Origin: an uncultured Nitrososphaerota archaeon
GTDB lineage: Archaea > Thermoproteota > Nitrososphaeria > Conexivisphaerales > DTJL01
DNA: 64,000 nt
NCBI GenBank assembly: GCA_963842885.1
Contig: CAWJIE010000005.1
Span: 32,001 to 96,000, forward strand
Direction of reading: 5' to 3'
Of this stretch, positions 529 through 12,554 are shown piece by piece. Numbering within the stretch: the stretch's first letter is position 1; each line of letters opens with the position of its first letter. Below the pieces are notes generated by a model, which saw nothing but the letters and a program-made list of their open reading frames with translations, did not search any database and was not told where the DNA came from. The translations under genes and the position numbers were made by a program.

Positions 529-602
529 GGGCCCGTAGCTCAGCATGGTAGAGCGACCGGCTCATAACCGGTCGGTCAAGGGTTCAAGTCCCTTCGGGCC
601 CA
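529..602 (+). tRNA. tRNA with CAT anticodon, most likely tRNA-Ile2
   Basis: Intron-less cloverleaf with GGGCCCG/CGGGCCC acceptor typical of archaeal Ile2; ACCGG-CTCATAA-CCGGT arm; TTTAAA box at 495-500. Confidence 0.9.
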
Positions 603-12074: not shown

Positions 12075-12200
12075 CGCCGCCGGCAGGACTCGAACCTGCG
12101 ACCAGCTGGTCTCTGCGTGGATTAACAGCTTCAGCCTTCTTGGAAGTCAGCTGCTCTACCACGCTGAGCTTTCGTCGACCGCAACGGGGCCAACGGCGGC
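12075..12200 (-). tRNA. tRNA-Asn(GTT) with three introns (8/9: 12171-12192; 30/31: 12130-12147; 37/38: 12111-12122)
   Basis: Splicing gives GCCGCCGTAGCTCAGCGTGGTAGAGCAGCTGGCTGTTAACCAGCTGGTCGCAGGTTCGAGTCCTGCCGGCGGCG, a canonical Asn cloverleaf with G73; each insert is bounded by a BHB/BHL motif. Confidence 0.92.
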
Positions 12201-12554
12201 TCGACGGCAGCGCTCGGAAGGGCTGAAGGGAGGTTTCGTTATAAGCGTTATGGGGACAAGTCTGTCACTGTAGGCACCGCCTTAACTGGAGGTGGAACAC
12301 GACATGGTCGGCGGGCCTTCGAAGACAGAGCCCTTGTGAATAGGACGGAAGCTCTGACGAGGACCGCCGTGACAAAGCACTGCTCCCAGAATCGCTTCAG
12401 CTAGTTTCTGGCCTTCTGCAACTGGACGCGTTCTCGTGTGCTCGCGCAGGGACCGTGGACGGCCGACGACAGGGAGAAGGAATCCTCCTCCCACCGGCGC
12501 GTCCTCTGTGAAGAAACAGGTGCAGGCAGGAATTGAAAGGGGGGAGGCCCAGAT

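Follow-up and report, generated by a model that had tools for sequence, protein, structure and literature searches.

Introns excised at bulge-helix-bulge (BHB) motifs, relaxed forms of these motifs, several introns within one tRNA and splicing endonucleases composed of two subunits are established in Crenarchaeota and have been noted in Thaumarchaeota, as far as the consulted sections of the respective reports go (PMC4090602, PMC4033280, PMC8450103, PMC3218864). For the Thermoproteales these sections describe up to three BHB introns per tRNA, at sites such as 3/4, 20/21, 30/31, 53/54 and 59/60 (PMC4090602, PMC4033280), and the sites named in the corresponding part of a review from 2014, a list left open by an "etc.", are 20/21, 22/23, 25/26, 29/30, 30/31, 45/46, 53/54, 56/57, 59/60 and 3/4 and do not include 8/9 (PMC4090602). 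Here we describe a tRNA-Asn(GTT) gene on the minus strand of a 64,000-nucleotide stretch of DNA (the window, G000:C5:32001-96000) of the genome G000 (2.03 Mb, 11 contigs, 86.96% complete), which is interrupted by introns at 8/9, 30/31 and 37/38 and carries in its leader an element complementary to the 3′ strand of the acceptor stem.

The locus shares with the described Thermoproteales genes the short protein-spliced introns, the strict and relaxed BHB motifs, the presence of several introns per gene including those at 30/31 and 37/38, and two endonuclease genes in the host. It differs from them in its affiliation to the Nitrososphaerota, in the intron at 8/9 and in the coupling of this intron to a conserved leader element. 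The non-canonical introns of Thaumarchaeota treated in the tRNAscan-SE 2.0 paper (PMC8450103) come from the same organism class, the relevant text giving neither positions nor a leader element. In the split and permuted tRNAs of Nanoarchaeum, Caldivirga and Thermofilum, base-pairing of sequence outside the mature tRNA (leader or trailer) enables splicing, as is proposed here, according to the excerpts at hand (PMC3218864, PMC4090602). There, however, the BHB motif that is cut arises from pairing between leader and trailer, whereas the present gene is contiguous and its leader is predicted to pair with the mature acceptor 3′ strand. No BHB motif between leader and trailer was found: none of the 17 candidates in the precursor combines a 5′ site in the leader with a 3′ site in the trailer, and a split or permuted arrangement was discarded. 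In the parts of the literature consulted we found no description of a leader complement of the acceptor 3′ strand accompanying 5′-proximal introns, and our literature search returned nothing on tRNA introns of Conexivisphaera. The gene itself is of the known multi-intron BHB type; the coupling of the leader to introns at 8/9 and 10/11 is the new part. The layout of the gene is as follows.

12245-12239, minus strand: TATA-like box CTTATAA, read from the sequence
12215-12201, minus strand: leader element GAGCGCUGCCGUCGA, complementary to the acceptor 3′ strand
12208-12201, minus strand: near-copy of the acceptor 5′ strand, GCCGUCGA, inside the leader element
12200-12193, minus strand: exon 1, GCCGCCGU, positions 1-8, perfect 7-bp complement of 12082-12076
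12192-12171, minus strand: intron 1, 22 nt, site 8/9, supported by BHB geometry, an intron-less congener and covariation
12170-12148, minus strand: exon 2, positions 9-30 (D arm and 5′ half of the anticodon stem)
12147-12130, minus strand: intron 2, 18 nt, site 30/31, strict BHB
12129-12123, minus strand: exon 3, 7 nt, GCUGUUA, positions 31-37, anticodon GUU
12122-12111, minus strand: intron 3, 12 nt, canonical site 37/38, bulge-helix-loop
12110-12075, minus strand: exon 4, positions 38-73 (3′ half of the anticodon stem, variable loop, T arm, acceptor 3′ strand and G73)
12074-12063, minus strand: 3′ trailer CCUCCAAUUUAA, the CCA of positions 74-76 not being encoded, with a short U run after it

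Joining of the four exons yields a molecule of 74 nt which ARAGORN calls tRNA-Asn(gtt) and which contains perfect acceptor, D, anticodon and T stems of 7, 4, 5 and 5 bp, the GUU anticodon in a 7-nt loop, U8, the T loop UUCGAGU and the discriminator base G73, an identity element. A sequence-only reading of the stretch had proposed a tRNA-Asn(GTT) in four exons with introns at exactly these sites and with the anticodon on a 7-nt exon; the cloverleaf, intron-less homologues and covariation bear out both proposals, exon 3 covering positions 31-37. The junctions were placed with the standard BHB geometry of a 4-bp central helix, a 3-nt bulge on each strand and a cut behind the second base of the bulge, the canonical 37/38 site serving as a check; cutting in this manner on both sides and joining gives the canonical cloverleaf. 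In intron 1 the outer helix GAGC/GCUC is formed by the leader bases -2 and -1 together with G1 and C2 and by positions 10-13 (12202-12199 with 12169-12166), the central helix CGCC/GACG by C3, G4, C5 and C6 (12198-12195) with 12176-12173 in three of four possible pairs, and the inner helix GGCC/GGUC by 12191-12188 with 12180-12177. Intron 2, rightly described before as a perfect BHB with a CAGC/GCTG helix, pairs CAGC (positions 25-28, 12153-12150) with GCUG (12135-12132) at 4/4 positions and has a 4-bp inner helix CUUC/GAAG closed by a 3-nt loop and an outer helix of 2 bp. The assignment of intron 3 as a bulge-helix-loop also holds, its central helix consisting of CUGU (positions 32-35, 12128-12125) and GCAG (12116-12113) in four pairs, one of them G·U, and its outer helix being the anticodon stem itself. 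Since a scan of the 171-nt precursor returned 17 relaxed BHB candidates, introns 1 and 2 among them, geometry taken alone is of limited weight, and the case rests on the comparative data.

A tRNA-Asn search over 40 relatives recovered genes with all three introns in three genomes of the same genus (G002, G003 and G004) and in three from other genera of the family (G005, G006 and G007); no match to the locus was obtained in G008 (85% complete). In the further same-genus genome G001 (locus L005) exon 2 follows exon 1 without interruption, the missing stretch being exactly the predicted 22 nt, and because a one-base shift of this stretch would change the product the junction of intron 1 is fixed exactly. 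Families f2 and f4 contain solely the introns at 30/31 and 37/38 (G009, G012, G029, G031, G018, G026, G027 and G030), family f3 solely that at 37/38 and thus no intron 2 (7 genomes), and most tRNA-Asn genes obtained by an exact-match scan with exon 2, which yielded 96 stretches from species-representative genomes, are intron-less, among them those of many other Nitrososphaerota. The pairing of the motifs is maintained across this material. For the central and inner helices of intron 1, 129/144 cells are paired in register among 18 distinct sequences, compared with 27-46/144 if the partner is shifted by 1 or 2; the inner helix is built from many different pairs, and position 5 occurs as C-G (5), U-A (5), U·G (3) and C·A (5). 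The central helix of intron 2 is paired in 104/104 cells over 26 distinct variants, including a double change from A-U to G-C, and that of intron 3 in 101/104 cells over 26 distinct variants. At the level of sequence comparison, the three junctions are confirmed by the intron-less homologues and by pairing kept across variants to a degree beyond chance. The distribution and pairing counts of the introns at 30/31 and 37/38 further argue that the 7-nt anticodon exon is old and widespread in the class. An intron at 8/9 is found in tRNA-Asn of three lineages and also in tRNA-Arg and tRNA-Thr, with an intron at 10/11 in tRNA-Gln; judged from these genes, 8/9 is a recurrent intron site in this class and not a one-off.

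The near-duplicate of the acceptor strand in the leader, GCCGUCGA, had already been noticed from the sequence, and it proves to be systematic across genes. As a measure we used the duplex energy between a 25-nt leader and the acceptor 3′ strand extended by 6 nt, which amounts to -20.1 kcal/mol at this locus. A leader complement of the acceptor 3′ strand, often also covering positions 73-75, is present in all genes with an intron at 8/9 or 10/11 (39/39 distinct but related sequences) as against 1/67 intron-less ones. The tRNA-Asn genes with the 8/9 intron reach -16.2 kcal/mol or lower in 19/19 distinct sequences, those without it (60 distinct) have a mean of -6.4 kcal/mol, and one of the latter goes past -15 (L078, -17.1). 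Homologues of tRNA-Arg, tRNA-Thr and tRNA-Gln were collected in three further searches over 40 relatives apiece, L181 and L182 being left unparsed. In tRNA-Arg, Thr, Gln(CUG) and Gln(UUG) the energy is -15.2 kcal/mol or lower in 20/20 distinct intron-bearing sequences and -10.8 kcal/mol or higher in 7/7 intron-less ones. Within G000, the four genes with an intron at 8/9 or 10/11 take the first four ranks by leader energy among 41 tRNA candidates (-17.7 to -21.5 kcal/mol; next -13.7).

These other genes emerged when words complementary to the acceptor 3′ strand were sought 5′ of every T arm in G000, which revealed a tandem copy in three more genes, tRNA-Arg(CCU), tRNA-Thr(GGU) and tRNA-Gln(CUG); the four copy-bearing genes are the only ones in which position 8-10 is not immediately followed by a D arm, and genes with introns deeper in the D arm have no leader copy. 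The tRNA-Arg(CCU)-like gene (L150, G000:C4 ~360440-360570, minus strand, outside the window), where exon 1 GCCGGGAU comes after the upstream copy GCCGGGAG, contains an 18-nt intron at 8/9, whose central helix CGGG/CCCG is perfect, and at least one further intron. The tRNA-Thr(GGU)-like gene (L151, G000:C4 ~318355-318470, minus strand, outside the window) consists of the copy GCCCCGGA, 2 nt and exon 1, and contains a 25-nt intron at 8/9 besides an intron at 37/38. The tRNA-Gln(CUG) gene (L152, G000:C5 ~111820-111970, minus strand, equivalent to window ~79800-79970 and hence past its end) has the upstream copy AGCCCUGA, a 21-nt intron at 10/11 whose central helix is taken from positions 5-8, and an insertion of ~52 nt in the anticodon region; the tRNA-Gln(UUG) of genus g4 has the same 10/11 intron and copy. 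Among tRNA-Asn genes the element occurs in 14/14 distinct family-type variants with the 8/9 intron and in two other lineages retrieved by a metagenome pattern which had been written to select 8/9-intron genes, and the gene of G001 has neither intron 1 nor the element. Intron and element appear to have been gained or lost together in about seven separate cases, namely tRNA-Asn of the family (both lost in G001) and of the two other lineages, tRNA-Arg (in genus g1 only, G005, G006 and G007 having neither), tRNA-Thr, tRNA-Gln(CUG) and tRNA-Gln(UUG) (in genus g4 only).

The acceptor 3′ strand is the most plausible partner of the element. The leader segment GCGCUGCCG pairs with CGGCGGCGC (positions 66-74) in the minimum-energy fold of the tRNA-Asn precursor, and in the other genera the tRNA-Asn leader presents GC plus GCCGUCG opposite CGACGGC plus GC and covers positions 73 and 74 as well. 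Corresponding extensions are found in tRNA-Thr (GA plus GCCCCGG opposite CCGGGGC plus UC) and tRNA-Gln (GGU plus AGCCCGG opposite CCGGGCU plus ACC). In an AT-rich lineage the element reads GAGCGUCGU or GAGUGCCGU; its first bases are unlike exon 1, it is complementary to positions 68-76, and the two sequences differ from each other by wobble to Watson-Crick changes. The copies in tRNA-Gln match positions 1-7 (6 or 7/7 against the 3′ strand) and not positions 5-8 that make up the central helix. The extra complementarity and the tRNA-Gln copies make the acceptor 3′ strand a likelier partner than the intron.

Folding calculations point in the same direction. The leader and not exon 1 occupies the 3′ strand in the unconstrained minimum-energy fold of 4/4 G000 precursors, and the folds of the tRNA-Arg and tRNA-Gln precursors already contain the central helix of the splicing motif. 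The differences below are the energy with the central helix forced minus the energy with the pairing of exon 1 to the 3′ strand forced, shuffled leaders being given as the mean of 60.

tRNA-Asn: native -4.5, no leader +12.2, shuffled leader +7.3 kcal/mol
tRNA-Arg: native -2.7, no leader +8.9, shuffled leader +0.8 kcal/mol
tRNA-Thr: native +4.2, no leader +12.4, shuffled leader +6.9 kcal/mol
tRNA-Gln: native -5.6, no leader +2.5, shuffled leader -0.7 kcal/mol

With the native leader the splicing-competent fold is favoured over the acceptor-stem fold for tRNA-Asn, tRNA-Arg and tRNA-Gln, and with no leader it is disfavoured for all four. The gain of the native over the shuffled leader is clear for tRNA-Asn and modest for tRNA-Arg, tRNA-Thr and tRNA-Gln.

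Consistent with the comparative and folding data we propose the following scenario. Transcription would start from the TATA-like box ~30 nt 5′ of the leader element, and the splicing endonuclease would cut the three protein-spliced BHB-type introns, an RNA ligase joining the exons. The motif of intron 1 uses bases of the acceptor stem and would therefore have to compete with this 7-bp, G+C-rich helix. The leader element might relieve the conflict as a stand-in strand that pairs with the acceptor 3′ strand, in other genes including positions 73-75, and thereby leaves exon 1 free for the splicing motif. Once intron 1 is gone, exon 1 would replace the leader on the 3′ strand, and RNase P would then remove the leader. 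Because the element must stay attached in order to act, splicing of intron 1 should come before RNase P cleavage and thus before 5′ maturation. The explanation as a whole, a working tRNA-Asn(GUU) gene with three BHB-type introns and a leader stand-in strand aiding intron 1, appears to us well founded and probable. Towards its most specific part, namely that the leader element substitutes for an acceptor strand and so enables removal of intron 1 before 5′ maturation, we lean only slightly. The broader proposal, that a stand-in strand is general and necessary for introns at 8/9-10/11 in that it parks the 3′ strand and positions 73-75, blocks early end maturation and forces a splicing-first order, is offered tentatively and with somewhat less than even confidence. 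A conserved cis element in the leader would be a simple answer to the question of how an acceptor-based motif can form at all.

That the 8/9 intron may be spliced before RNase P acts had been suggested in the sequence-only reading on other grounds, namely the participation of leader bases in the GA-GC/GCTC outer helix. The conclusion is strengthened by the conserved leader element, but the reason given for it is weak: the outer helix comprises 4 bp in 8/14 distinct variants (six of the own genus, L135 and L144) and only 2 bp without any leader bases in the other 6/14; the conserved feature of the leader is the complement of the acceptor 3′ strand.

Several observations weigh against the proposed role of the leader or against its generality. 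In this genus, accounting for 5/18 distinct sequences, the central helix of intron 1 has C5 opposite A, a C·A mismatch which the sequence-only reading, correct as to the outer helix, had not mentioned, and the central helix of tRNA-Thr has a comparable C·U mismatch at position 5. The leader elements of L063 and L144 form a C·A mismatch with position 68. As to the energies, the native difference for tRNA-Thr stays positive, and for tRNA-Arg and tRNA-Thr the native leader is only ~1 standard deviation better than shuffled ones. Moreover, after removal of all introns the pairing of the leader with the 3′ strand (-47.6 kcal/mol) is still preferred to that of exon 1 (-41.9 kcal/mol), so that displacement of the leader is not explained by secondary structure alone and would need tertiary contacts of the tRNA or proteins. 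The association of intron and element is also less independent than the counts imply, because the sequences are related and correspond to ~seven separate gain or loss cases, and the metagenome pattern was selective by design. It is imperfect as well: L070 has a leader duplex of -13.6 kcal/mol without an 8/9 intron, and L078, which L050 resembles, has a strong element complementary to positions 68-76 and no 8/9 intron. The close relatives L095 and L132 of the AT-rich lineage possess both, and all four share a 14-nt intron at 59/60; L078 and L050 reflect either a recent intron loss or a second role of the element. Finally, RNA sequencing of Methanopyrus kandleri, whose pre-tRNAs are likewise archaeal precursors with leader and introns processed by RNase P, placed end trimming before intron removal, according to the pertinent section of the report (PMC3695527). 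Our model predicts the reverse for intron 1; if it is true, removal of this intron precedes 5′ maturation, unlike in M. kandleri, and the splicing-first order is opposite to the only order measured in an archaeon.

Instead of acting at the RNA level, the leader element could be the relic of a short tandem duplication of exon 1 that accompanied or followed the arrival of the intron. In all four G000 genes the copy indeed lies 8 or 10 nt 5′ of exon 1 and matches positions 1-7 fully or almost fully, and the tRNA-Arg intron with its copy, confined to one genus, looks recent. A relic would not be expected, however, to be kept in tRNA-Asn of four genera and two distant lineages within an otherwise unconserved leader, nor to be lost along with the intron as in G001. 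The extra complementarity beyond exon 1, to positions 73-75, argues against a neutral relic, and so does the element of the AT-rich lineage, which is no exon 1 copy and is nevertheless complementary to positions 68-76; we consider a relic unlikely. If the element does act, its target might instead be the 3′ end of intron 1, where it would serve as an alternative strand of the central helix or as a competitor timing the formation of the motif. The intron GACG of this genus is matched perfectly by the leader CGUC, where CGCC of exon 1 leaves the C·A mismatch, and the leader also pairs better than exon 1 in L063. Yet the central helix of tRNA-Gln uses positions 5-8, which the copies do not match, position 8 being absent or different and position 6 being U in this genus, yet the copies match the 3′ strand at 6 or 7/7 positions. 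The leader of L144 mismatches the intron, the inner helix is contiguous with exon 1 only, and simultaneous pairing of leader with intron and of exon 1 with the 3′ strand would produce a pseudoknot. Covariation between the leader copy and the intron 3′ end was also followed in the larger set and abandoned as the main reading, as L144 and tRNA-Gln left no consistent pattern. Such a pairing is quite unlikely in our view, and the acceptor 3′ strand is retained as the likelier partner.

The two copies could also have exchanged roles, the upstream one being the true exon 1 and the downstream one forming, together with the 22 nt, a 30-nt intron; the acceptor stem would then contain a G·U pair and position 8 would be A. 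In favour of this, the upstream copy of this genus pairs with the intron 3′ end over all 4 bp of the central helix and would build an acceptor stem of 7 bp containing a single G·U. Against this stand the intron-less congener, which has the downstream sequence with U8, and the downstream copy itself, which tracks the 3′ strand (C5-G68 or U5-A68) where the upstream copy gives C·A in L063 and L144; in addition, the upstream copy of tRNA-Gln is without positions 8-10 and that of the present gene gives no inner helix. On these four points the upstream copy was rejected as exon 1, and the exchange is very improbable. That the entire locus represents a pseudogene in decay, or resembles a tRNA by chance, might be suspected from its being missed by default tRNA finders and falling just below the Rfam cut-off, and from the mismatch in the central helix of intron 1. 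This view is hardly credible given the perfect cloverleaf after splicing, the promoter-like box conserved 5′ of the gene, the conservation with compensatory changes across families and the lack of another tRNA-Asn in the searches of G000. In these searches, ARAGORN with introns allowed reported 42 tRNA genes in G000, none of them for Asn, no second strong match to the locus was present in this genome, and a scan of it for a GUU anticodon arm combined with a T arm gave 4 matches at 2 places, none tRNA-like on inspection. The sequence-only reading had named another tRNA-Asn, together with the lack of a mature tRNA from this locus, as one finding that would count against it; no other tRNA-Asn was found in the 87%-complete genome, a count that has to be read in view of the many G000 tRNA genes escaping standard finders. 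The locus is likely the sole tRNA-Asn(GUU) gene of the genome, with the reservation that the assembly is 86.96% complete, and it is apparently a working gene.

With respect to the control regions, the TATA-like box CTTATAA, which we take to be an archaeal TATA box, has counterparts in the relatives: other genera of the family show the motif GCTTATAA 26-30 nt 5′ of the leader element, and in G001, the congener without intron 1, it lies 25 nt 5′ of G1. The U run after the trailer may act as a terminator.

The two introns of the anticodon region might be removed in a defined order. In the local fold of the unspliced anticodon region the motif of intron 2 is formed and that of intron 3 is absent from the minimum-energy structure; after removal of intron 2, the minimum-energy fold is exactly the canonical motif, with 7 bp in the outer helix, 3 nt in the bulge and 4 bp in the helix that ends in the loop. 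A substitute outer helix for intron 3 can be drawn with the GCUG of intron 2 itself, GCUG occurring three times and CAGC twice in the anticodon stretch so that other helices are possible. The folding thus supports the earlier suggestion of ordered splicing from 30/31 to 37/38, but the alternative outer helix means that the order is not forced; removal of intron 2 probably precedes that of intron 3. A possible need for one intron to leave before the next motif can form is mentioned in the relevant part of the tRNAscan-SE 2.0 paper (PMC8450103). As a separate observation, CCACGC of intron 3 (12121-12116) is perfectly complementary to GCGUGG of the D loop (12164-12159, both minus strand), and the minimum-energy structure of the precursor pairs them with each other; the 12-nt intron 3 is near-invariant across families, and the D loop is identical in nearly all sequences having this intron. 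Rfam further reported a match to the C/D-box family sno_ZL63 at 12119-12160 on the minus strand, across exon 2, intron 2 and exon 3 (24.5 bits, cut-off 50, E 0.011). A C/D-box RNA in intron 2 was dismissed, the score being below the cut-off and no C box being seen in intron 2, and the match is probably due to chance.

The host lineage is Nitrososphaerota. The titles listed for 80 of the 96 stretches from the exon 2 scan name Nitrososphaerota or Thaumarchaeota groups or simply an 'archaeon', and in L093, a record labelled Conexivisphaerales, exon 1 and intron 1 are identical to those of the G002-type locus. The catalytic domain of the splicing endonuclease, PF01974, was detected in two open frames of G000 (95.9 and 64.5 bits). 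Two paralogous genes fit a two-subunit endonuclease of broad specificity, the gene count suggesting a heterotetramer; two-subunit enzymes are described, in the portion of the review concerned, as cutting relaxed motifs and occurring in Thaumarchaeota (PMC4090602).

Over the window, neither ARAGORN nor Rfam at its gathering score detected the tRNA-Asn gene, their sole report being a tRNA-Met at 529-602, and ARAGORN with introns allowed also misses the locus in G000. Under permissive settings the Rfam tRNA model aligns to it with 28.6 bits against a cut-off of 29, covering model positions 9-63 and treating 32 nt of the anticodon region as an insertion. tRNA finders could exploit strong complementarity between leader and acceptor 3′ strand to locate 5′-proximal introns. 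The tRNA set of G000 needs a BHB-aware annotation: many of its tRNA genes are interrupted, several inside the D arm, several isoacceptors are missing from the 42 genes of ARAGORN, and some of the long-intron calls look unreliable. The tRNA-Met(CAU) at 529-602 (plus strand, 71.5 bits) is ordinary and without an intron. In another lineage of Nitrososphaerota the tRNA-Asn genes L071, L146 and L147 span 170 nt from G1 to G73 and can be parsed into introns at 8/9 (13 nt), 30/31 (15), 37/38 (18), 53/54 (30) and 59/60 (20), the exons summing to 74 nt. This parse is based on motif geometry and exon length, ARAGORN having accepted well over 100 splice combinations for L071 without discriminating between them; against these five candidate introns, the passages of the reviews concerned give at most three per tRNA (PMC4090602, PMC4033280).

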